Positions 7,604 through 44,513 are shown, counted from the first letter of the stretch. The stretch: 56,901 nt of DNA from Sedimentisphaerales bacterium (GCA_016927855.1 JAFGLV010000163.1:1-56901); one strand, 5' to 3'. The notes: generated from the letters alone by a model not told the origin. Numbers and translations are program-made.

Positions 7604-10600
7604 TTACGATTTCTGTTTGCCTTGCTGAGCTTTCATGCCGAACAGCAGCAGCGGCGACGCGATCGCGATGGACGAATACGTACCGATGACGACGCCAAAG
7701 CCGATGGCGAAGGTGAAGCCTCGCAGGCCGGGACCGCCCCAGATGTACATCACCAGCACCACGATGAACGTCGTGAACGATGTCATGATGGTTCGCGATA
7801 GCGTCTGGTTGATGCTGTTCGTGATCGTCTGCGGCGTCAGTTGAGCCTTGTGCCGGTTCTCGCGAATCCGGTCGAACACGACGATCGTATCGTTGAGCGA
7901 GTAACCGATCAGCGTCAGCAGCGCCGCGATCATCGCCAGGTTGATCTTGAAGTCGCCGATTAGCAGGAACGAACCGATCGGAGTGGTCGCGATGTAGGCG
8001 CAGGCGGTCACCGCGCCCAGGGTAATGATCACATCGTGGACGAGAGCGACAATGGCTGCCACGCCGTAGCGGAAGTTGCCGAATCGCACCCAGACATATC
8101 CGACAATGGCCGACAACGACAGGAAGATCGCAATCAGAGCACGCGTCTTCTGCTCGGAACCGACGGACGGATCGATCTGAGTGACGCGCGGCAGTGTCGC
8201 CTCGAGTTGCGTTGCCGCCAGGACACGGCTCTTCTCATTGGCGACGAAACGATCCCATTCCTCCTCGGTCAGCTCGCGCAGGCCAGCTTCCGGCTCAGTG
8301 CTGACGTACACGAAGCTCTCGAGCGGCTGGTTGGCGTCGACGGGCTTGAGGTCGGGACCGAACAGAGCGTATGGATACCACGTGAGACCCTGCGTGTCAG
8401 GCTTGAACCGCAACTCCTTGAGGCGGCTGTCGATCTCGTCCAGCGACGCCGGCGTCCCCAGACGGACTTCGATCTGGATGCCGCCGATGTACTGGGCCAA
8501 CTCGGGATACGTGTCGACTTGTGCGTCGGTGATCCGCGTTTGCGCGACGATGACGGGTTCGAGGTTCTGTTGAATCTCCAGTTGCCCCTCGAATGCCTCT
8601 CGCACCGCGTTGCTGACGACCTCGTCGATCTCGGGTTCAGCCACCTGGGCGGTGGGGAAAGCCTTCTCGAGGATGTTCCTCATCACCGAAGGATTGACGC
8701 GAGTCGTCGAGACGACGAAGGAGTCGGCTCCGCCGGCGGCGGGGCCGACGCTCAGGTTGCTCAGATCCCGGTTGGACTCCGCCTGAGCCTCCCGGATAGC
8801 GGCGGTCATGCTGTCGATGCTCTGGGCCGCTCCGGGTGAGAAAGTGACAACCGCGCGGGTCATGTTGGTGGCCGTCGTGGTGATCTCGTATTGGCCGAAA
8901 GTGCTCTCGCCGCTCGACGTCGTGCCGGTGGGCTCACCCAGGCTGTATACGTTGGCGGCCTGGAGGGCGGGATTGCCCAGCTCCTGGCCCTTCAGGATGA
9001 TCCGGTCCTCGACGTCCTGGCGCGTGAGCGCCACATCGGGCTTGAGATTGATCTGAACGCTGGTGCCGCCGGTGAACTCGATGTCGTACTTGTTGTTCTC
9101 GGCATCGTCACGGGTGAAGAAGACCAGCAGGCCGAGGACGATCAGCGCGCCCGAGATGGCCAGGAACACCTTTCGCAACCCCATCCAGTTGATGTTGGGC
9201 TCGCGGATGAGGCGGAGCATCTTGATCTGGTCTTTGATGACGCGTTTCGAGACGAGGAAGTCGAAGACGACGCGAGTGACGAAAAGGGCGGTGAACATAC
9301 TCGAAGCGATGCCGAGCATCAGCACGATGGCGAAGCCCTTGATCTCTTCCGACGCGACGTAGTACAAGATGGCGGCGGTGATGAACGTCGTCAGGTTCGA
9401 GTCGAAGATAGCGCGGAAGGCTCTTTGATAGCCGTTCTTGATGGCGACGGCGAGGCCCGAGCCCTTCTGCTGCTCTTCACGAATTCTCTCGAAGATCAGC
9501 ACGTTCGCGTCCACGCTCATGCCGATCGTCAGGATGATACCGGCGATCCCGGGCAGGGTGAAGGTGGCTCGCAGTCCGGCCATGATGGCCAGGACGAACA
9601 GGATGTTCAATACGAGCGCGACGTCGGCAATCGCTCCGGCGCGGATGTAGTAGCCCAACATGACGGCCATCACCACGATCAGGCCGATGATCCCGGCAGT
9701 GATGCCCTGGTCGCGGTTCTCGGCGCCGATGGACGGGCCGATCGTCTTCTCGGAGATGGGCTGCTCGATGAGCCGGCCGGGCAGGGAGCCGGCGTTGAGC
9801 TTATTGACCATGTCGTTGACTTGTTGCTGAGTGAACGAGCCGGTGATGAGGCCTTCGCTACCGATGGGCCGTTCGGGGTTGATTTCCGGAGCCGAAATGG
9901 CGATTTTGTCGAGCAGGATACACAGGGGACGTCCCGGATTGCGCTGGGTCAGATTCCAGAAGAGCGAGCCCCCTTTGTCGTCGAGGCGGAAGGCGATGGC
10001 CCGCCGTCCCGTGGTGTCCGTGGAGGGGTTTGCCTTCTCCAGCGACCAGTCGGGACTGCCAGCCTCGTGCAGCATCGTTTCATTGGGCTGATTGCTGGCC
10101 AGCACGTAGTACTTGTCCCCGAAAGGCGCCACGACGGCGCCCTCGACAGCCCACTCTTCGATGTTCTCGATCTCGCACCAGACGTGGTTGTTGTCCAGCC
10201 GATAGCCGGGCCCTTTCTCCATTAGGGTTTGGACGTAGCGTTCCATCTCGACGGTGCTCAACTCCGAGCGCTCCTGCGTGGGCAGGATGCGGAATTCCAG
10301 GATGCCGGCGCCCTTGAGCATGCGCTGAAGGTCGCGCGGGTCGTCGAGCTGGCCTTGGAAGGGACTATAGGCATCAAAGGCCTCGACGACGCGGTCAATT
10401 TCGGCAACGCGATCGGGGAACTGCGCCTTGAGTGCCTCCAAGCGCTCGGTGCGCTGCGCCGAATTCGCGCGAAGCTGAAGGGCATAGGTGATCTGGTCCT
10501 GGGTGAGGTTGAGCTGATCGAGGTGCCGCTTGGCCTCCTCATACCGGTCGTTCAGGCCGCCGGCGCGGGTCAGCCGGTCGAGGACGTCAACCTGCTGTTT

Positions 10601-11299
10601 GTAGGTGTTGACATACTCGGTCAGTATCGGCAGCGGATCGTTCGGGTCCAGGAAATCGGTCAGCGTCTCGGTTAGCGTGTCGCCTTCGAGGTTCATCCAG
10701 TCGCGCCGGTTGGCCTCGACGCGCTCCACGTCCACACCCGCCTCGGAGAGCTTTTCCTTGAGACTGTCGAGCGCAGCGGTGAGTGTGTCACGCTGGTTCT
10801 GCGCTTCGGCGCGCTCGTCGTAGATGGAGGCCAGATCGGTGAGGATCTCCAGTCGATTGGGATCGTTCATCGCGTAGGCGCGGAGGTCCTCCATGCGCTG
10901 CTCCTCCGGCTGCTGCAAGGCGCGCATGATCGTCGCCGGATTGACGTTCTTACGCAGCAGGGCGTCCAGCGCGTCGTCATAGGCCTGGCGTCGCTCCTGC
11001 GTCTCCTTGCTGGCCAGCGGCATTTGGATCTCGAAACGCGTGTTGCCCTGCGGCCGCCAGATCAGGTTCTGGATATTGGCTGGGTCGATGCGCCGGCGCA
11101 GGACGGTGATCATGCGCTGAGCGAGGTCCTTTTCTTCATCGGGGGTCATTCCCTCGGTGTCAATGGCGTAAATCATGCTTGTGCCGCCGGCCAGGTCGAT
11201 GCCCTGCTTGAGGGTCTCGCTCGGGGGATACAGGGTCCACAACGCGAGGGCCACCAGAACGACAACTAAGACGCTTTTCGGCACCAGATTCTTGTTCAT
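7604..11299 (-). CDS. secDF: Protein translocase SecD-SecF fusion (1231 aa) with a very long periplasmic P1 domain
   Basis: N-terminus MNKNLVPKSVLVVVLVALALWTLYPPSETLKQGIDLAGGTSMIY is a SecD signature. Two RND-like 6-TM bundles (…IGPSIGAENRDQGITAGIIGLIVV…; …SINQTLSRTIMTSFTTFIVVLVMYIWGG…). Lies in the conserved tgt-yajC-secDF context. Confidence 0.9.
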   Translation of the reverse strand: MNKNLVPKSVLVVVLVALALWTLYPPSETLKQGIDLAGGTSMIYAIDTEGMTPDEEKDLAQRMITVLRRRIDPANIQNLIWRPQGNTRFEIQMPLASKETQERRQAYDDALDALLRKNVNPATIMRALQQPEEQRMEDLRAYAMNDPNRLEILTDLASIYDERAEAQNQRDTLTAALDSLKEKLSEAGVDVERVEANRRDWMNLEGDTLTETLTDFLDPNDPLPILTEYVNTYKQQVDVLDRLTRAGGLNDRYEEAKRHLDQLNLTQDQITYALQLRANSAQRTERLEALKAQFPDRVAEIDRVVEAFDAYSPFQGQLDDPRDLQRMLKGAGILEFRILPTQERSELSTVEMERYVQTLMEKGPGYRLDNNHVWCEIENIEEWAVEGAVVAPFGDKYYVLASNQPNETMLHEAGSPDWSLEKANPSTDTTGRRAIAFRLDDKGGSLFWNLTQRNPGRPLCILLDKIAISAPEINPERPIGSEGLITGSFTQQQVNDMVNKLNAGSLPGRLIEQPISEKTIGPSIGAENRDQGITAGIIGLIVVMAVMLGYYIRAGAIADVALVLNILFVLAIMAGLRATFTLPGIAGIILTIGMSVDANVLIFERIREEQQKGSGLAVAIKNGYQRAFRAIFDSNLTTFITAAILYYVASEEIKGFAIVLMLGIASSMFTALFVTRVVFDFLVSKRVIKDQIKMLRLIREPNINWMGLRKVFLAISGALIVLGLLVFFTRDDAENNKYDIEFTGGTSVQINLKPDVALTRQDVEDRIILKGQELGNPALQAANVYSLGEPTGTTSSGESTFGQYEITTTATNMTRAVVTFSPGAAQSIDSMTAAIREAQAESNRDLSNLSVGPAAGGADSFVVSTTRVNPSVMRNILEKAFPTAQVAEPEIDEVVSNAVREAFEGQLEIQQNLEPVIVAQTRITDAQVDTYPELAQYIGGIQIEVRLGTPASLDEIDSRLKELRFKPDTQGLTWYPYALFGPDLKPVDANQPLESFVYVSTEPEAGLRELTEEEWDRFVANEKSRVLAATQLEATLPRVTQIDPSVGSEQKTRALIAIFLSLSAIVGYVWVRFGNFRYGVAAIVALVHDVIITLGAVTACAYIATTPIGSFLLIGDFKINLAMIAALLTLIGYSLNDTIVVFDRIRENRHKAQLTPQTITNSINQTLSRTIMTSFTTFIVVLVMYIWGGPGLRGFTFAIGFGVVIGTYSSIAIASPLLLFGMKAQQGKQKS

Positions 11300-11364
11300 A
11301 GGTTTTCCTGCTCAGTCTGTTTCTATCGAGGACTATTTTTTCTCCGACCGTTTGCGGCCGAGGT

Positions 11365-11796
11365 CTATTCCTTGCCGCCTTCCTGGGTGAGGTTGCGGCC
11401 GATCGCGGAGGTGGTGACCTTGATCTTGGTGTTGTTCGACTCGTCGATTTTGAGCGTCACCTCGTCGCCCTTGATGTCCACGACCGTTCCGAGGATGCCC
11501 CCAATGGTCCGGACACGGTCGTTCTTGGCGAGCGCCTGCACCATCTGCTTGTGTTTCTGCTGCTGTTTGCGTGGGCCGCGCAGCATGAAAACGTACATAA
11601 TCACGAATATGACCGCCAGGAAGATCAACTGCGTGGGAAATTGCGGGCCAGAGGGGGCGCCCGTCTGGTTGGGGTCCGGGGGGGCCTGGGTCTGCGAAGT
11701 GGTCTGGTCCTGGCCCTGTCCCTCCAGCGGCAGGTCGTTGACCTGCGAAGGCGCTCCATTGCCTTCCGCCCAGGCGATTATCCACGTATACTCCAT
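11365..11796 (-). CDS. yajC: Preprotein translocase subunit YajC with a Q/P-rich N-terminal extension
   Basis: …LIFLAVIFVIMYVFMLRGPRKQQQKHKQMVQALAKNDRVRTIGGILGTVVDIKGDEVTLKIDE… is the YajC core. Position between tgt and secDF is as expected. Confidence 0.85.
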   Translation of the reverse strand: MEYTWIIAWAEGNGAPSQVNDLPLEGQGQDQTTSQTQAPPDPNQTGAPSGPQFPTQLIFLAVIFVIMYVFMLRGPRKQQQKHKQMVQALAKNDRVRTIGGILGTVVDIKGDEVTLKIDESNNTKIKVTTSAIGRNLTQEGGKE

Positions 11797-11909
11797 AATT
11801 AGGTTCCTTTCAGGTCCTCAAGTATATTCGCGGTAGCGTATCCAGCGAGGGGAGAATTGTCAAATTCAAATGGCAGTTAGCCGCCGAAAACCCGGCTCGA
11901 TCAGGGGCG

Positions 11910-13022
11910 TTATCGGACGCGGCTTGGCCGGGCCAACTCCTGCGCGGCCCAGACGTCGAAATCACCTGACTCGATGTGCCGGCGGATCTCGGCCATCAGA
12001 CGCTGGTAGAACCTCAGGTTGTGCAGCGACAGCAGGATGGGACCGAGCATTTCCGAGCAGTTGAAGAAATGGCGGATCGCGCCGCGCGTGAAGTGACGGC
12101 AGGCGTAGCAATCGCAATCGGCTTCGAGCGGATCGCCCGAGTCGATATGGACGTTGTTGCGCAACCGCAGGGGTCCCTCCCGAGTGAAGGCGAAGGCGTT
12201 TCGTCCGTTGCGCGTGGGCAGGACGCAGTCGAACATGTCGACGCCGGCCCGGACCGCCGCGATGATGTCGATCGGCATACCGACACCCATGAGATAGCGC
12301 GGTCGGTCGGTCGGCAGCAGGGCGGCGGTGTGCTCGACGGTCCGGCGCATGTGCTCGTGACCTTCACCGACGCTCAGACCGCCGACGGCATAACCGTCAA
12401 AACCGATATTGACGATCTGTCCTGCGCAGTATCGACGCAACTCGAGATCGATCCCTCCCTGGACGATGCCGAACAGCAACTGGTCGGACCTGCGGTGCGC
12501 CGCCTTGCAGCGTTTCGCCCACTCGATGGTCCGCGCGACCGCGGTCTTCAGGCGGTCCGGCTCGACCGGGAAGGGCGTGCATTCGTCGAAGCACATGATG
12601 ATATCGGCGCCGAGGCGGTTCTGAATCTCGGTGGCCCTCTCGGCGCTCAGGTGGACTTTCGCGCCGTCGACGTGGCTGGCGAACTCGACCCCTTCGTCGT
12701 CGATGCGAGTCAGCGCGCTGAGCGAGAAGACCTGGTAGCCACCGCTGTCGGTCAGGATCGGACGGTCCCAGGCCATGAAGCGGTGCAGCCCTCCAAGCCT
12801 CTCGACGACCTCAGCGCCCGGCCGGAGCATGAGATGGTAGGTGTTGGCCAGGACGATGTCCGGCCCGGTGGCCTGAAGCTGGTCGGGCGTAATGCCCTTG
12901 ACCGCGCCGGCGGTCCCGACCGGCATGAACGCCGGGGTCTGGACGTTTCCGTGGGCGGTAGTGAGCACGCCGCGCCGAGCGGCGCTGTGCAGGTCGTTGT
13001 GGGTTATGCGAAAATGCGACAT
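11910..13022 (-). CDS. tgt: Queuine tRNA-ribosyltransferase (tRNA-guanine transglycosylase)
   Basis: MSHFRITHNDLHSAARRGVLTTAHGNVQTPAFMPVGTAGAVKGITPDQL…VLANTYHLMLRPG… plus the zinc-site CxCxxC…H near the C-terminus. Start placed at Met 13022 rather than the long ORF-track extension. Confidence 0.9.
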   Translation of the reverse strand: MSHFRITHNDLHSAARRGVLTTAHGNVQTPAFMPVGTAGAVKGITPDQLQATGPDIVLANTYHLMLRPGAEVVERLGGLHRFMAWDRPILTDSGGYQVFSLSALTRIDDEGVEFASHVDGAKVHLSAERATEIQNRLGADIIMCFDECTPFPVEPDRLKTAVARTIEWAKRCKAAHRRSDQLLFGIVQGGIDLELRRYCAGQIVNIGFDGYAVGGLSVGEGHEHMRRTVEHTAALLPTDRPRYLMGVGMPIDIIAAVRAGVDMFDCVLPTRNGRNAFAFTREGPLRLRNNVHIDSGDPLEADCDCYACRHFTRGAIRHFFNCSEMLGPILLSLHNLRFYQRLMAEIRRHIESGDFDVWAAQELARPSRVR

Positions 13023-13066
13023 GCGTGATTTGTCGATAGGCTCATTCGGACCTATTCTCCGTCTCC

Positions 13067-14365
13067 TCAGTAGACATTCACGATCTGGGCGCCGGGGTAG
13101 TAATACCGCAGGATCTCTCGGGCGTTCTTGCCGAGCCGAGCCAGTCCCTCGGCTCCGTACTGGCACATGCCGACGCCGTGCCCCCAACCGCGGCCGGAGA
13201 GAAAGGCCCAGCCGTTGCCCCAGGGAACGACCTGGCAGATCGTGCTCTGAAGCTTGCGGCCACTCGGGTCGAGTGTCAGACGCAGGTCTTCGCCGCGCAG
13301 GGTGTCGGTCTTGCCGGTCGAACCGACCAGCCGGACCCGGGTCAGCCGCGACGACGCGCCGTAGTCGCTTTTGTCCTCGACGATGATCTCCCTGATCTCT
13401 CCCAACGCCTTGAGGCTCGGGTACTTCCCGATCAAGCGCCGCGTCACGGTGTCACGATCGAACTGAGCCATCGGCCAGAAGTACAACCCCAATCGCGCCA
13501 CCTCCTTGCAGTAGGGACAGGCAACGCCGCTCAGCGGTGCGAACGTATCGCCGAAGACGCGCTCGCTGGACTCGGTATGGCCTCCGCAGATCGCGCTATA
13601 GTAGGCTGGGAAGAGCCCCGAAGCCGAGCCTGGTTGGCCGCCGGTGGTCAGCACCATTCCGTACGTGGCGTTGACCGCGTTCCAGATCGGCGTCGATTCG
13701 GCGCTGATCCCGCCATACACCTGGCTGGCCTGCGTGCTGCTGACGTCCCAAGTGCGGTTGGCACCGAAGCGGTTCTTGATGTAGAGGCAGTAAGTCCGCG
13801 CCGCAATGGTCTGGGCCTTTAACGCCTCCGGCTCCCAGTAGTCGGGCATCTCGGCGCCGACGACGCCGGCCAGATACGGCTCCAAAGGCACGAGGTTGAT
13901 CGCGGTGAAGGTGCGGCCGTCATTGTTGGCGGCCAGTTCGAGCTTGCCGCGGTAGTCCCGGCCGTTCAGCGTGAAGACATAGGGTTTCTCCGCGCTGACG
14001 AGGAAGCGAGTGCCCGCTATGGGGGTGTTGCCGAAGACGAACTGGCCACCGCCCAGCGTGACCTTCGCTGGTACGTTCGGCGGTAGCACGGCTTGTGCCA
14101 CTGAGATCTCGGGACCCAGAGTCGGCCGGCCCGCTCGCAGGGCCGCCGGCGCCTTGAGCGTACATTCCGTCGCGTTCGAAAGCAGCAGGACACGGACCCA
14201 GAACCGCGATTCAATGCCCATCTGGGGTGTCGGTCGCACGATCTCGCGCTGCTCGCAACCACCCAGAAGCGCCGCCAGCAGGACTATGCACGCGCGAACC
14301 CACGGAACGCTGGAATGGCGGAACAGTGGAATACGGGGATGTCGCGCGACGGTCCTACCCAACAT
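13067..14365 (-). CDS. SpoIID/LytB-domain protein (peptidoglycan lytic transglycosylase / amidase-enhancer family), lipoprotein-like N-terminus
   Basis: SpoIID core motifs …AQTIAARTYCLYIKNRFG…WDVSSTQASQVYGG… and …AYYSAICGGHTESS…; N-terminal hydrophobic stretch ending LLGGC. Confidence 0.8.
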   Translation of the reverse strand: MLGRTVARHPRIPLFRHSSVPWVRACIVLLAALLGGCEQREIVRPTPQMGIESRFWVRVLLLSNATECTLKAPAALRAGRPTLGPEISVAQAVLPPNVPAKVTLGGGQFVFGNTPIAGTRFLVSAEKPYVFTLNGRDYRGKLELAANNDGRTFTAINLVPLEPYLAGVVGAEMPDYWEPEALKAQTIAARTYCLYIKNRFGANRTWDVSSTQASQVYGGISAESTPIWNAVNATYGMVLTTGGQPGSASGLFPAYYSAICGGHTESSERVFGDTFAPLSGVACPYCKEVARLGLYFWPMAQFDRDTVTRRLIGKYPSLKALGEIREIIVEDKSDYGASSRLTRVRLVGSTGKTDTLRGEDLRLTLDPSGRKLQSTICQVVPWGNGWAFLSGRGWGHGVGMCQYGAEGLARLGKNAREILRYYYPGAQIVNVY

Positions 14366-40424: not shown

Positions 40425-40664
40425 GCGAGTTTCCCTCCATTTTCATATCTCCACGGATTCTCGCGATGCCATACCGGCACGAAATATAACACATCGGCGT
40501 GCGAAAATCAAAACAATACCCAAGAAAGTGCGGAATTTCATGGTAGCCGACGCCGGTGGGCTTGTCTCACGCGAGAGTTTTATCGGCAAAAGACTGTATC
40601 GGTAGCGCAATGAATCACACTTTCATGCGTCCAAATAAGAGGAACCTTTTTGGGAGGTAATGCT

Positions 40665-40829
40665 ATGGCTGCTCGAAGTGTGAAACGAAAGGTCACTGTC
40701 TGGGGCATTCTCGTCGTCCTGTTCGCCGGGCTGATGCTGTCGGGCTGCGGCAAGAACAACGAGCCGGCGCCCCAGCCCGACAACGAGCCCAATGCGGCGA
40801 TGTCCACGCCGGCTGACGCGAACAACTGA
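40665..40829 (+). CDS. Small (54-aa) putative lipoprotein, MAARSVKRKVTVWGILVVLFAGLMLSGCGKNNEPAPQPDNEPNAAMSTPADANN
   Basis: Strong SD GGGAGG 8 nt upstream of the ATG, lipobox LSGC, in an AT-richer intergenic region. Below the 60-aa cutoff of the ORF track. Confidence 0.35.
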   Translation: MAARSVKRKVTVWGILVVLFAGLMLSGCGKNNEPAPQPDNEPNAAMSTPADANN

Positions 40830-40871
40830 TCCGCCGCGCCAACGGCGCCGAGCGCGAGGACGTTGGCGCTT

Positions 40872-41141
40872 TCAGCGGCAGAGCATCGCGACGCCGACCG
40901 TCGAGAGATAAAGAGCGATCAAACCGCCCGCGATCAGCGTGCAGATCACCGCCAGGGTCCGGGGCCGATCGTAGCGGATGCCGATCGCGCCGAAGAGCAT
41001 CGCCAGCGGAAAACACAGGACTATCAGCAGCCCTCCAAGGGCTGCGGTCGGATCGCCTCAGCCAGGCTGGAGCACCATCATCAAGCCGATGGTCGCTCCG
41101 GCCGTGACGAGAAATGTCGCTGCTATCTTGCCGTACCGCAT
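40872..41141 (-). CDS. Candidate small (89-aa) integral-membrane selenoprotein directly downstream of selB: MRYGKIAATFLVTAGATIGLMMVLQPG, TGA (41058-41060), GDPTAALGGLLIVLCFPLAMLFGAIGIRYDRPRTLAVICTLIAGGLIALYLSTVGVAMLCR
   Basis: ATG lies 16 nt after the selB stop, preceded by AAAGGA. In-frame UGA is followed after 12 nt by the hairpin GCAGCCC-UUGGA-GGGCUGC. Hydrophobic TM-like segments lie on both sides of the UGA. Confidence 0.45.
41027..41045 (-). promoter_or_regulatory. SECIS-like hairpin for the small membrane protein (7-bp stem, UUGGA apical loop)
   Basis: Read directly. Spacing and the G/U-containing apical loop fit bacterial SECIS criteria. Confidence 0.45.
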
Positions 41142-41157
41142 GGCGTGTGTCCTTTGT

Positions 41158-43083
41158 CTATTCGTCGGCGTTGACCTTGTTCAAGTGCCGCGTGTATCCC
41201 ACGCGGCGCGTCACGCCGATCTTGTCGAAGTAGTCGAGCAACGGGATGGCATATTTGCGCGTCGTATCGAGCAGGTATTTGAACTTGACGCTCTCCAGGT
41301 TGCCGTGCTCGCGGATGTAAGCGATCAGGCGCGCGCGGGCGTCCGCCAGCGCCTCGGCGTGAACGTACATGTCCTGCTCGATCCGCACGATTCTCTGCTG
41401 TTCGACCAGGATACGCAGGGCCTTGCGAATCTCCGGCTCGCTCGCCCCGGTACCGGCCATCAGCTCCGCGGAGCCAGGCGGACTGAACGGCTGTTGCTTG
41501 AAGAGCGCTTCGATCTTCGTGAGCAGTTCCCACTCGGCCTGCTTGAATTGCTCGCGATGTTGAGGCAGCGCCAGGTGATTTTTTCTCTCGGCCAGCAGGC
41601 CGTTCGACAGCAGGCGCTCCAGCACAGGGTCGAACACGCTCCTGTGAATTCCGGAGGCGGTCAGAAGCTGCTCGGGCCGGATACCGGGACTTTCAGGCTG
41701 ACGACGGTGCGTCTCGGCGACCAATTCCAGCAGTCGCTGCTCGATGCGCCGGACCGTGTCAGTGTGTGCGTACAACCTGGCGCCGAGCCGGATGGCGGAG
41801 TCCTCGTCCTGTAACCCCGCTAGAGTCTTGGTCACCTCCGGCTCGGGTATCTTGGTGCGCAGCGAGATTTGTCTTTCATCGACCGCCAGCGACTCGGCGG
41901 TCCTGACGCAATACGCGATGAAGTCTCGCGGCGTCTTGACCGCCTCGGCCCGCGCGCGGATATCGTCGAGTATCTCCGGGCGGCTGCGCTTCAGTCGCCT
42001 GGGAATCGCCTCGACGATCAGGCCGCCGCCGATGGTGCGGGCAGGGGAGGGCAGTCGCAAGATGAAATGGTCTCCCGGCCCGGCCACGACCGGCTGGTTC
42101 AGACACACCTGGATCAGGCACGTCTCGCCGGGCTTGAGCGGCGCGTCCTCGAAGAGATACGCGCTGGCGGGTGTCTCGGAAGTCCCGGTGTGGAACTTGA
42201 CCTGGGCGCCGTTCTTGAGACTGCTCTTCTCTTGCGCCAGCAGCTTCAGCTCGCACACGTACCATGATTCAGGCGAAAAATAGTCTCCAATGGTGACGAC
42301 GTTGCCTCGCTTGATGTCTTTGGGGTCCCACTGGGGGACGTTCAGCGCCGCGCATTGACCGACCATGGCGCCGTCGCTTTCGTGATTGTAGACCTGCACC
42401 GCGCGGAGCCGGCCTTTCCTGCCCTGGGGCAGGAGCACGAGCTCATCGCCGATCTTGATCGATCCGGACACCGGAATGCCGGCGACGATGGTCCCGTAGC
42501 CCTTAGCGGAGAAGGCGCGCTCCAGCGGGACACGGAAGACGCCGTCGGCGCGTTTGGGCTCGATCGCTTCGACCAATGCCTTGAGCGCGTCGTAGAACTC
42601 GCCAAAGCCGTCGCCTGTGATGCTGGAGACCGGCAGGACCGGTGCGCCTTCGAGGAAGGTCCCGAGCAGGAAGGCCGCGATCTCCTGCGTCACCGCTTCG
42701 ACGCGCTCGGGACGGACGCAATCGACTTTCGTCAGCGCCACGATACCATGTTCGACGCCCAGCAGGGTGAGGATGTCCAGGTGCTCGCGCGTCTGCGGCA
42801 TGACGCCGTCGTCGGCCGCGATGACGAGGATCGCGCCGTCGATGCCGGTCGCACCGGCCACCATCGTCTTGACGAAGTTCTCGTGGCCCGGCACGTCCAC
42901 CACGCCGATTTCCGTCCCCGAGATCAGGCACGGCGCAAAGCCCAGCTCGATGGACATGCCGCGTTCCTTCTCCTCTTTGAGCCGGTCCGTCTCGCAGCCG
43001 GTCAGGAGGCGGATCAGCGCGGTCTTGCCGTGGTCGATGTGACCGGCCGTGCCGAGCGTGATGTTTCGCTGCTGCGCACCCAC
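41158..43083 (-). CDS. selB: Selenocysteine-specific translation elongation factor SelB
   Basis: GTP-binding N-terminus …ITLGTAGHIDHGKTALIRLLTGCETDRLKEEKERGMSIELGFAPC…VVDVPGHENFVKTMVAGATGIDGAILVIAADDGVMPQTREHL…. C-terminal winged-helix extension (641 aa total, longer than EF-Tu) as expected for SECIS binding. Confidence 0.9.
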   Translation of the reverse strand: MGAQQRNITLGTAGHIDHGKTALIRLLTGCETDRLKEEKERGMSIELGFAPCLISGTEIGVVDVPGHENFVKTMVAGATGIDGAILVIAADDGVMPQTREHLDILTLLGVEHGIVALTKVDCVRPERVEAVTQEIAAFLLGTFLEGAPVLPVSSITGDGFGEFYDALKALVEAIEPKRADGVFRVPLERAFSAKGYGTIVAGIPVSGSIKIGDELVLLPQGRKGRLRAVQVYNHESDGAMVGQCAALNVPQWDPKDIKRGNVVTIGDYFSPESWYVCELKLLAQEKSSLKNGAQVKFHTGTSETPASAYLFEDAPLKPGETCLIQVCLNQPVVAGPGDHFILRLPSPARTIGGGLIVEAIPRRLKRSRPEILDDIRARAEAVKTPRDFIAYCVRTAESLAVDERQISLRTKIPEPEVTKTLAGLQDEDSAIRLGARLYAHTDTVRRIEQRLLELVAETHRRQPESPGIRPEQLLTASGIHRSVFDPVLERLLSNGLLAERKNHLALPQHREQFKQAEWELLTKIEALFKQQPFSPPGSAELMAGTGASEPEIRKALRILVEQQRIVRIEQDMYVHAEALADARARLIAYIREHGNLESVKFKYLLDTTRKYAIPLLDYFDKIGVTRRVGYTRHLNKVNADE

Positions 43084-43088
43084 CGGCT

Positions 43089-44513
43089 CTACTGACCTCC
43101 ACCCAGAATCCTGCCGAGCGCTGCGATGACGACCGGGTCGTCCCCGTCGCGCAGCGTGCGCGTATCGATCAGCACGCGATCGTCCTGAATCCGCGCGAAG
43201 ATCGGCGGCTCGTTCAGCCGCAGCCGTTTCGCCAGTGCCTCGGCGTCGCCTCCTTTGGCTTCGACAGTCACCAGCGTCGTCGCCAGATTTTGCGTCGGCA
43301 ACGACCCACTGCCCATCTGCGAAAAGCCGGGCGTCGTCGTCACCGGCGCATCAGGAACCTTCTCGCGAACCTGCGCGACAAGGCGCTCGGCGTGCTGCTT
43401 GATGTCCTCGGCGGTGCGCCGCAGCATTTGCAGCGTCGGCACCTCACGCAAGGCAACGGTCTCGTCGAGGAACAGTTTCAGTGTCGCCTCCAACGCCGCG
43501 AGGGTGAGCTTGCCCACGCGGACGATCCTGGCAAACTGGTTCTTGCGGATCGCGTCGATCCATCGTTTCCGGCCCAGGATGATGCCGCCTTGCGAGGCGC
43601 CGATGAGCTTGTCGGCGCTCGAGGTCACGATGTCGGCGCCGCGGCAGATCGATTCAGGCAGCGTCGGCTCCGGCGCGAAACCGAACTGCGAAAAGTCGAT
43701 CAGCGCACCCGCACCCACGTCGTCGATCAGAGGCAGGTCGTGTTCGTGAGCGATCTTGACCATCACGTCCAGCGGGACCTCGGACGAGAAGCCTTGAATC
43801 TTGTAGTTGCTCGGATGGACGCGGAGGATCGCGGCGGTATTCTCGGTGATCGCGTTTTCGTAGTCCCGCGCGTGCGTTTTGTTGGTCGTGCCGACCTCGA
43901 CCAGCTTGGCGCCGCTGAAGGCCATCACGTCGGGCAAGCGGAACGATCCGCCGATTTCGACGAGCTGACCGCGCGAGACGATCACCTCTTTGCCCGCCGC
44001 AACGGTGTTGAGCACGATAGCCGTCGCGGCCGCGTTGTTGTTGACCACTGTCGCCGCCTCGGCGCCGGTCAATCGCTGAAGCAGCGCTTCGATGCACTCG
44101 TCCCGCCAGGAGCGTTTGCCGGTCTCTCGATCCGCCTGGAGCAGGGAGTAGCCGCCTAGTGTTTCCTGAATCTGTTCCAGCGCCTTGCCCGCGAGGACCG
44201 CCCGGCCCAGCGCCGTGTGCAGGACGATCCCTGTCCCGTTGACGACCCTGCCGTAGAAAGGCCTCTCGAGGCTCTCCAGGCGGCTGGTCGCGGCCGAGAC
44301 GACCCATTGCTGAATCTGACCTTCGCTCGGGTCGTCGGCCGCTCCGGCCAGCAGGCGCTGCCTAACCTCTTCGACAGACGCTCGTACTGCCTCGGCCACC
44401 GGCGACCGGCCCAATTGTCCCTCAAGGGCCTGCAACGCTGGGTTCTTCAGAATCACGTCGACCGACGGCAACCGGCGCAACAACTGGTTCGTCTGCTTTT
44501 CCATAACCAGCAT
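43089..44513 (-). CDS. selA: L-seryl-tRNA(Sec) selenium transferase SelA
   Basis: N-terminal …LLRRLPSVDVILKNPALQAL… and core …VVNGTGIVLHTALGRAVL…NNNAAATAIVLNT… with a PLP-fold body. Typical SelA length (474 aa), 5 nt upstream of selB. Confidence 0.9.
   Translation of the reverse strand: MLVMEKQTNQLLRRLPSVDVILKNPALQALEGQLGRSPVAEAVRASVEEVRQRLLAGAADDPSEGQIQQWVVSAATSRLESLERPFYGRVVNGTGIVLHTALGRAVLAGKALEQIQETLGGYSLLQADRETGKRSWRDECIEALLQRLTGAEAATVVNNNAAATAIVLNTVAAGKEVIVSRGQLVEIGGSFRLPDVMAFSGAKLVEVGTTNKTHARDYENAITENTAAILRVHPSNYKIQGFSSEVPLDVMVKIAHEHDLPLIDDVGAGALIDFSQFGFAPEPTLPESICRGADIVTSSADKLIGASQGGIILGRKRWIDAIRKNQFARIVRVGKLTLAALEATLKLFLDETVALREVPTLQMLRRTAEDIKQHAERLVAQVREKVPDAPVTTTPGFSQMGSGSLPTQNLATTLVTVEAKGGDAEALAKRLRLNEPPIFARIQDDRVLIDTRTLRDGDDPVVIAALGRILGGGQ

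Follow-up and report, generated by a model that had tools for sequence, protein, structure and literature searches.

A candidate Sec-containing membrane micro-protein encoded next to selB in Planctomycetota

Layout of the selA-selB operon

The window, by which we mean the whole stretch of DNA analysed (56,901 nt, or 57 kb, from a Sedimentisphaerales bacterium), carries on its minus strand a selA-selB operon followed by a small gene (Table 1). selA, coding for the L-seryl-tRNA(Sec) selenium transferase, is the first gene of the operon and is followed by selB, coding for the Sec-specific elongation factor. A preliminary description of this DNA had placed the small gene downstream of selB, and the TIGRFAM equivalog matches confirm the identity of both selB and selA. 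Among the 43 related loci fetched for comparison (see below), the SelB closest to the one in the window belonged to a Pirellulales MAG and had 83% identity to it. The ATG located 16 nt past the selB stop with its AAAGGA motif and the 89-codon frame with TGA at codon 28 were found just as described, on the minus strand, which had been left unstated. GGA or GGAGG-like motifs appear at an equal distance from the start in the upstream sequences of the homologues. No terminator-like site was found in the 16-nt gap between selB and the small gene, and the shortness of this gap suggests that the small gene is co-transcribed with selA and selB as the last member of a selA-selB-small-gene unit.

Beyond the small gene, a GC-rich hairpin covers its real stop and occupies the gap that separates it from a convergent ORF. 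This hairpin has an MFE of -28.3 kcal/mol, a z-score of only -0.54 (not significant) and no U-tract, and by its position it is a candidate for the operon terminator. The convergent small ORF (40650-40829 of the window, plus strand), which ends 42 nt from the selenoprotein stop, has a signal-peptide-like start with an L-S-G-C lipobox and no Pfam match, and could code for a small lipoprotein. No tRNA-Sec gene was detected by ARAGORN in the 57-kb window and neither selC nor selD was seen in it; a tRNA-Sec gene is present in one of the related loci (L119).

Table 1. Features of the selA-selB-small-gene unit, with positions counted from the first letter of the window
Feature	Position	Strand	Basis
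selA, L-seryl-tRNA(Sec) selenium transferase, first gene of the operon	43089..44513	-	TIGR00474 equivalog, 541.6 bits (cutoff 267.9)
selB, Sec-specific elongation factor	41158..43083	-	TIGR00475 equivalog, 362 bits (cutoff 242)
Stop codon of selB, TAG	41160-41158	-	Read from the sequence
Shine-Dalgarno-like AAAGGA, 8 nt before the ATG of the small gene, within the 16-nt gap after selB	41150..41155	-	Read directly
Putative small selenoprotein gene, 89 codons and TGA stop	40872..41141	-	Translation, homologues, selection
Start codon of the small gene, ATG	41141	-	
In-frame UGA, codon 28, proposed Sec codon, motif Q/R-P-G-U-G	41058..41060	-	TGA kept in homologues
SECIS-like hairpin	41027..41045	-	RNAalifold, pair counts, bSECIS fit
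Letters of the hairpin: GCAGCCC, UUGGA, GGGCUGC	41045-41039, 41038-41034, 41033-41027	-	
Conserved stem of the hairpin	41044-41039 paired with 41033-41028	-	
Invariant closing pair U-A; apical loop U-G-G	U41038-A41034; 41037-41035	-	
Terminal stop of the small gene, TGA	40874-40872	-	
GC-rich hairpin over the real stop, reaching 41 nt past it, in the 42-nt gap before the convergent gene	40831..40878	-	

The in-frame UGA in related sequences

With SelB as the query we collected 43 loci from GTDB species genomes, nearly all of them Planctomycetota MAGs labelled Pirellulales, Phycisphaerae or Sedimentisphaerales. Comparison by tblastn with the small protein gave 24 full-length homologous ORFs in 17 of the 43 loci, each located downstream of selB and frequently present as a tandem pair, and the similarity at the protein level extended about 60 codons past the TGA. 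In all 24 genome-derived members the aligned codon is TGA and forms part of the motif (Q/R)-P-G-U-G. Metagenomes were scanned with a pattern spanning P-G-TGA and the core of the hairpin, which returned at least 120 stretches, and an HMM search over all the loci collected led to at least 146 distinct members (genome and metagenome matches listed). The homologous codon was TGA in 139 of the 146, TTA (Leu) in two and GGA (Gly) in one, with no Cys codon and four partial sequences; this count is biased because most of the metagenome members were retrieved through a TGA-containing pattern, and the unbiased support for TGA is that given by the genome loci, the tandem second copies and the protein searches. 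Reassignment of the code was considered and rejected, since TGA is also the usual terminal stop of these same genes (82 of 134 among the matches listed). The code is therefore standard, the codon has not been reassigned, and an internal TGA needs a local signal.

The three non-Sec codons (TTA, TTA and GGA) are each one base away from TGA, and each of these variants is found in tandem with a TGA-containing copy and has a degraded hairpin. The Leu and Gly paralogues, which are rare, were located at L044 6001-6261 (TTA), L046-L049 (TTA), L050 651-917 (GGA) and in P0014, and in L047 the Sec copy beside the variant is split by an IS200-like (Y1 transposase) insertion. They indicate that the fold is possible without a chalcogen at this site, which also leaves some room for a regulatory reading of the element.

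The preliminary description had proposed to look at whether relatives carry Cys or Sec at this position, and the answer is essentially always Sec and never Cys. No Cys homologue was found in the 1.84 billion representative proteins, in a 5.8-billion-sequence collection or among the 146 members, nor could a Sec/Cys homologue pair be established, and a word-indexed protein search with the U-to-C sequence gave no match. The exact 61 residues after the UGA, used as a phmmer query against the 1.84 billion representatives, had 12 matches in all. These included C-terminal fragments starting at internal Met, Leu or Val codons, two Leu variants, one Gly variant and two proteins with W at the Sec position that read through the terminal TGA, the latter confirmed on the DNA as code-4 miscalls of TGA; there was also one more distant, longer protein without the loop and one weak multi-stretch match on an unrelated 1011-residue protein. 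The 5.8-billion-sequence collection, searched with a profile via its word index, yielded nothing but fragments 46-72 residues long.

Gene calls in public databases err systematically around these loci. Antisense phantom ORFs have been called over the selenoprotein gene, e.g. L044 6282-6566 (minus strand), and miscalls affect many entries (P0001, P0002, P0006, P0011-P0024), with C-terminal fragments of 46-72 residues among the types of error. In entries P0003 and P0004, translated with code 4, TGA appears as W and the protein continues beyond the true stop.

Translation past the UGA

The frame that follows the UGA stays open for at least 50 codons in 98% of 134 distinct genes (matches listed), with a median of 62, and the other two frames of the same genes do so in only 3% and 50%. 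The codon-position entropy (positions 1/2/3) was 1.12/0.95/1.51 upstream of the UGA and 1.20/0.78/1.46 downstream, from codon 12 past the UGA onward, so that both sides have the order expected in coding sequences (position 2 < 1 < 3). Nei-Gojobori dN/dS values downstream of the UGA were 0.05-0.2 in close pairs, lower than those of the N-terminal helix. The part after the UGA is thus the best-conserved part of the protein and a 27-residue peptide is not its sole product. An unconserved downstream frame had been named in advance as an outcome that speaks against the gene, and both the open frames and the dN/dS values are the opposite of that. As judged from sequence comparison, recoding of the UGA and translation past it are well supported.

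The hairpin downstream of the UGA

The hairpin GCAGCCC-UUGGA-GGGCUGC, reported in the preliminary description as lying 12 nt past the UGA, is present on the minus strand, the 12-nt spacer being counted from the TGA to its outermost base. The outermost pair, G41045-C41027, is formed in the window as an eighth pair and is not conserved. On the two strands of the 57-kb window together there are just two perfect 6-bp stems enclosing a T[TG]GNA loop, and only the one in the small gene follows an in-frame TGA in an ORF at the 20-nt spacing of the family. Its rarity and this unique spacing argue against a chance occurrence.

The 24 genome-derived sequences gave an ungapped alignment (A1) that extends 9 nt upstream and 57 nt downstream of the TGA, with positions T32, T33, G34 and A36 invariant. 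RNAalifold, run unguided, predicted exactly one helix, formed by six variable pairs, all of them compensated, and the invariant U-A pair that closes the U-G-N loop, so that compensatory changes are found in 6/7 pairs. Paired cells amounted to 85.7% versus 68.9% in shuffled alignments, none of the 500 shuffles reaching the observed value, double-change cells were 33 versus 11.2, and slid controls were paired at 29-49%. The 29 sequences that fall outside the search pattern were still paired at 69-93% per pair, with several pair types. Besides, the third codon positions in the spacer and the hairpin are as constrained as the first two (0.84), a constraint confined to this region and exemplified by the GNA codon, which varies at the middle base alone. 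This is a signature of RNA-level selection on top of coding.

In the model of the bacterial SECIS (bSECIS) the apical loop has 3-9 nt and the upper stem 4-16 bp, at least one of the first two loop positions is a G, with G or U as the usual next base, the UGA is 16-37 nt from the loop and the MFE is at most -7.5 kcal/mol (PMC13188914). The hairpin of this family has a 3-nt U-G-N loop on a 7-bp covarying stem (8 bp in the window), with G34 invariant at loop position 2 and T or G as the next base in 23 of the 29 sequences outside the search pattern. The UGA-to-loop distance is 20 nt, identical in 24/24 sequences of alignment A1 and found in 90 motif matches over the window and the loci, and the energies obtained were -15.2 kcal/mol for the hairpin centroid and -17.4 kcal/mol for the MFE of 51 nt. 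In support of the term "SECIS-like" that had been applied to it, the hairpin covaries and agrees with every structural constraint of the bSECIS model. Its single-sequence folding z-score (-1.38) is unremarkable in GC-rich DNA; the support for the hairpin comes from covariation and fixed spacing. Rfam 15 gave no SECIS or other family at gathering thresholds, a local scan yielding chance matches only (E >=6), and a cross-check against known selenoproteins for other genes with the same type of SECIS, in the window and the loci, likewise gave chance matches only.

It had also been considered that the hairpin might simply be the selAB transcription terminator. It is followed by UGAUAGUCC, with no U-tract, and lies inside the conserved ORF, which does not correspond to an intrinsic terminator. 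An alternative weak stem with a terminator-like score, AGGGCUGCUGAUAGUCCU then GUGUUUUCC, overlaps the 3' arm of the SECIS-like hairpin (41017-41034 of the window, minus strand); it is not conserved in the homologues and is probably due to chance.

Predicted properties of the protein

The product would be a membrane protein of about 9 kDa with three predicted transmembrane helices. Hydropathy delimits three segments (residues 6-24, 32-55 and 63-87; mean Kyte-Doolittle 2.1-2.2), and an AF2 model, made on the Leu variant alone, has helices at 2-24, 31-55 and 59-85 with moderate confidence (pLDDT 68). The hydrophobic micro-protein with two transmembrane segments of the preliminary description is thus right in its membrane character, but hydropathy and model agree on three helices rather than two. 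Over 125 members the net charge is +1.5 at the N-terminus, +1.65 in the loop between helices 2 and 3 (D-R-R-K) and +0.5 in the Sec loop, a distribution that by the positive-inside rule favours an N-in topology with the Sec turn outward. Sec would occupy the tight turn that joins helices 1 and 2, where P-G-U-G-x-P is conserved, and this turn probably faces the outer side of the cytoplasmic membrane.

The residues conserved in at least 90% of the members are M1, G4, P26, G27, U28, L35, G54 and D58. Neither a CxxU nor a UxxC motif is found in the family protein, and no conserved resolving or partner Cys was found within the chain in 127 members. A selenenylsulfide with a conserved partner Cys was considered and dropped, as a C-terminal Cys is present in 38/127 and 28/127 have no Cys whatever. 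Nothing scored above the cutoffs of Pfam-A or NCBIfam 20.0 for the window protein and two homologues (best E 0.003-0.05), and a profile search of PDB sequences found nothing either (best match with E 0.14).

Genomic context of the family

The search for homologues downstream of selB, as the preliminary description had suggested, was successful both in the genome loci (17/43) and in the metagenomes, where among the matches listed the 3' end of selB was directly upstream on the same strand in 51 of the 92 evaluable loci (55%), mostly 14-200 nt away. In the remaining 41 evaluable loci the gene is found in diverse contexts not behind selB. Also among the matches listed, one copy was found in 88 loci, two in 35 and three in 2. 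Clustering of neighbour genes revealed no conserved partner gene besides selAB, the clusters being mostly selA/selB, their antisense shadow ORFs and lineage-specific genes, and a Pfam scan of the neighbours in the window was uninformative. In locus L100 (about 10695-13222) three copies of the family come directly after pstB-phoU-like genes, so named by the look of their sequences, and not after selB.

In related loci a conserved mini-ORF, absent from the window, closes many selAB-small-gene clusters. It was seen in at least nine (L002 ~8370-8490, L009 8478-8600, L019 8414-8540, L095 ~2070-2190, L100, L117, L155, L084 and L039) with the sequence MRYDKIxYxLLRV...LLLA(L/M)FQPG-TGA-(I/M)-x-TGA. 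Its hairpin, (C)GGTCC-TTGCA-GGATCG, has the loop 23 nt past the first TGA, and there is no conserved frame beyond. The mini-ORF may code for a selenopeptide of 30 residues with a single helix and Sec three residues before its end, represent a UxxU site, or serve as a SelB-binding hairpin that stands alone. The copy in L014 has its ORF broken by TAG TAG but keeps the hairpin.

Proposed mechanism and alternative explanations

We consider that the small gene is a genuine selenoprotein gene, in which binding of SelB to the hairpin makes the ribosome read UGA-28 as Sec and go on translating, and we give this reading a probability of about 85%. The gene would be transcribed with selA and selB, given the 16-nt gap, and translated from its own Shine-Dalgarno sequence. 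When the ribosome arrives at UGA-28, the conserved hairpin that starts 13 nt downstream (a 7-bp stem including the invariant U-A, with the U-G-N loop 20 nt from the UGA) would be bound as a bacterial SECIS by SelB-GTP-Sec-tRNA(Sec), selenocysteine would be inserted instead of termination, and translation would go on through two further transmembrane helices. That the residue is Sec rather than another one is suggested by the fit to the SECIS model together with the adjacent selAB genes. The Sec-containing membrane micro-protein next to selA-selB that had been proposed is thus supported by the comparative evidence, and none of the contrary results listed beforehand was found.

Instead, the UGA and the SelB-binding hairpin might act mainly in regulation, as a sensor or decoy for charged SelB on the selAB mRNA, with the protein as something secondary. 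The gene is within the selAB transcript in about 55% of the evaluable loci, and there is the precedent of E. coli, in which SelB binds its own mRNA (PMC13449736). Replacement of Sec by Leu or Gly and never by Cys, as if the codon outweighed the chemistry of the residue, the missing conserved partner Cys and the truncated mini-ORFs (helix 1, UGA and hairpin) kept at the 3' end of at least nine clusters point in the same direction. We nevertheless regard a mainly regulatory role as improbable, because purifying selection is stronger downstream than upstream of the UGA, the long open frame is kept in 98% of the genes and 41/92 evaluable genes are away from selB. Moreover, an element downstream of selB cannot block initiation of selA and selB as the E. 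coli element does, and regulation is compatible with real Sec insertion, so that it would be an added layer and not a true alternative.

The remaining explanations dispense with selenocysteine. If the UGA were a genuine stop, the only product would be a peptide of 27 residues with one helix, and the hairpin would terminate selAB transcription or stabilise the mRNA as a 3' structure, as could be thought from its GC-richness, its place close to where the operon ends, the weak terminator-like site that overlaps with its 3' arm (41034-41017) and the gene callers, which end there. This is very unlikely considering that the frame after the UGA is open and under purifying selection in about 130 homologues, that the UGA-hairpin spacing is fixed to the nucleotide, and that the conserved hairpin has no U-tract after it, the overlapping "terminator" stem is unconserved in the alignment and a separate hairpin comes after the real stop. 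Structures located 3' of a stop codon can stimulate read-through in general, and the UGA could hence be read by a near-cognate Trp or Cys tRNA or by a suppressor tRNA while the hairpin slows the ribosome; the Leu and Gly variants show that the position tolerates ordinary residues, and the window has no tRNA-Sec. The loop sequence and the spacing, however, fit the SelB-specific bSECIS model, selA and selB lie in physical linkage with the gene, TGA is the normal stop in these genomes, and sense codons would be expected to be common if any residue sufficed, yet TGA is found in 139/146, all of which leaves little credit to a read-through that does not insert Sec. A pseudogene or an error of sequencing or assembly, to which a single in-frame stop in a short unannotated ORF might be attributed, is hardly conceivable when 139 distinct sequences, taken from independent assemblies and free of frameshifts, all have TGA at that codon.

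Under selenocysteine insertion, expression of the small protein would be automatically coupled to the Sec machinery encoded with it. For its role we can only make a low-confidence guess: a function at the membrane, perhaps at its outer face, that is related to selenium or redox and requires selenium specifically. Cys never takes the place of Sec in the members found, and a partner Cys is not conserved. A further and rather doubtful step would be to see here a Sec-obligate membrane family carried with the Sec machinery (in some cases as two paralogues plus the 30-residue selenopeptide), whose selenol at the outer face works as a selenium-specific relay or sensor. Such a selenol might capture incoming selenium species via Se-Se chemistry or report the selenium or redox status, the output of protein would be an intrinsic read-out of the supply of Sec-tRNA and SelB, and a selenium-specific selenol at the outer face would explain why Cys never substitutes.

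Comparison with known systems

Canonical bacterial selenoprotein genes such as E. coli fdhF, which the bSECISearch consensus model describes, likewise carry an in-frame UGA with a hairpin after it inside the coding sequence. The small apical loop with G at position 2 (then mostly U/G) and the stable upper stem are shared, the 20-nt UGA-loop distance of this family is within their 16-37 nt, and decoding is presumably SelB-dependent alike. Unlike them, the family described here is a polytopic membrane protein of 80-95 residues with no recognisable redox fold or CxxU/UxxC motif, and its gene is inside the selAB operon.

Among eukaryotes, SELENOK and SELENOS are likewise tiny selenoproteins anchored in the membrane, each having one Sec and lacking a classical thioredoxin fold; they have one transmembrane helix, a C-terminal Sec and the SECIS in the 3' UTR. 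The mini-ORF, with its Sec three residues from the end, resembles this C-terminal placement. They are not known to be similar in sequence to the present family, they belong to another domain of life, and the Sec of the present family would be located in an inter-helix turn.

The selAB transcript of E. coli carries in its 5' UTR a SECIS-like element, so that both systems have a SelB-binding-type hairpin on the selA/selB transcript (PMC13449736). The E. coli element has no UGA, is 3 nt from the selA Shine-Dalgarno and represses initiation (PMC13449736), whereas the hairpin in the window is downstream of selB, after an in-frame UGA and in coding sequence under purifying selection. No SECIS-type hairpin was found upstream of selA in the window, and the window element does not fit a leader repressor of the E. 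coli type.

The table of a 2026 review on prokaryotic selenoproteins includes the VPGUxxT family NF041383, the KCU-star family, the selenobacteriocin TIGR04081 and the YedE/YeeE transporter selenoprotein PF04143. The small families in it are likewise short or membrane proteins with a single Sec, and one of them shares the tripeptide PGU; NCBIfam and Pfam scans gave no match of our family to any of these. The text of that review does not contain "membrane protein", "transmembrane" or "Planctomyc", and full-text literature searches had no match for the motif or for a small membrane selenoprotein beside selB. Almost all known selenoprotein families have Cys homologues (PMC12013277) and none was found for this one; selenoproteins without Cys homologues are missed by current methods according to the deep-Sep paper. 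The recoding mechanism is the one known in bacteria. What appears to be new is the family itself, its Sec-only character, its nature as a membrane micro-protein and its embedding in the selAB operon.

Implications

Bacterial selenoproteins have been found almost entirely via Cys homologues or known folds, and a family that is short, hydrophobic and Sec-only is invisible to gene callers and to methods based on Cys or folds. Databases hold it merely as fragments of 46-72 residues or as code-4 miscalls. If our reading is correct, it would be a warning that the annotations adjacent to selB in these MAGs, antisense phantom ORFs included, are wrong. It would also provide a natural UGA plus SECIS cassette of about 35 nt, with its covariation mapped, for the study of SelB recognition beyond Proteobacteria and Firmicutes.

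For the organisms themselves, the family would represent a widespread addition to the prokaryotic selenoproteome (at least 120 metagenome stretches) and, in Planctomycetota, a selenoprotein physically tied to selAB. It would be one of the rare cases in which Cys cannot take the place of Sec, and would bear on the old question of why organisms use Sec in the first place. Should the tentative sensor role also hold, the family would constitute a new functional class of selenoproteins and a built-in client of selAB in Planctomycetota.
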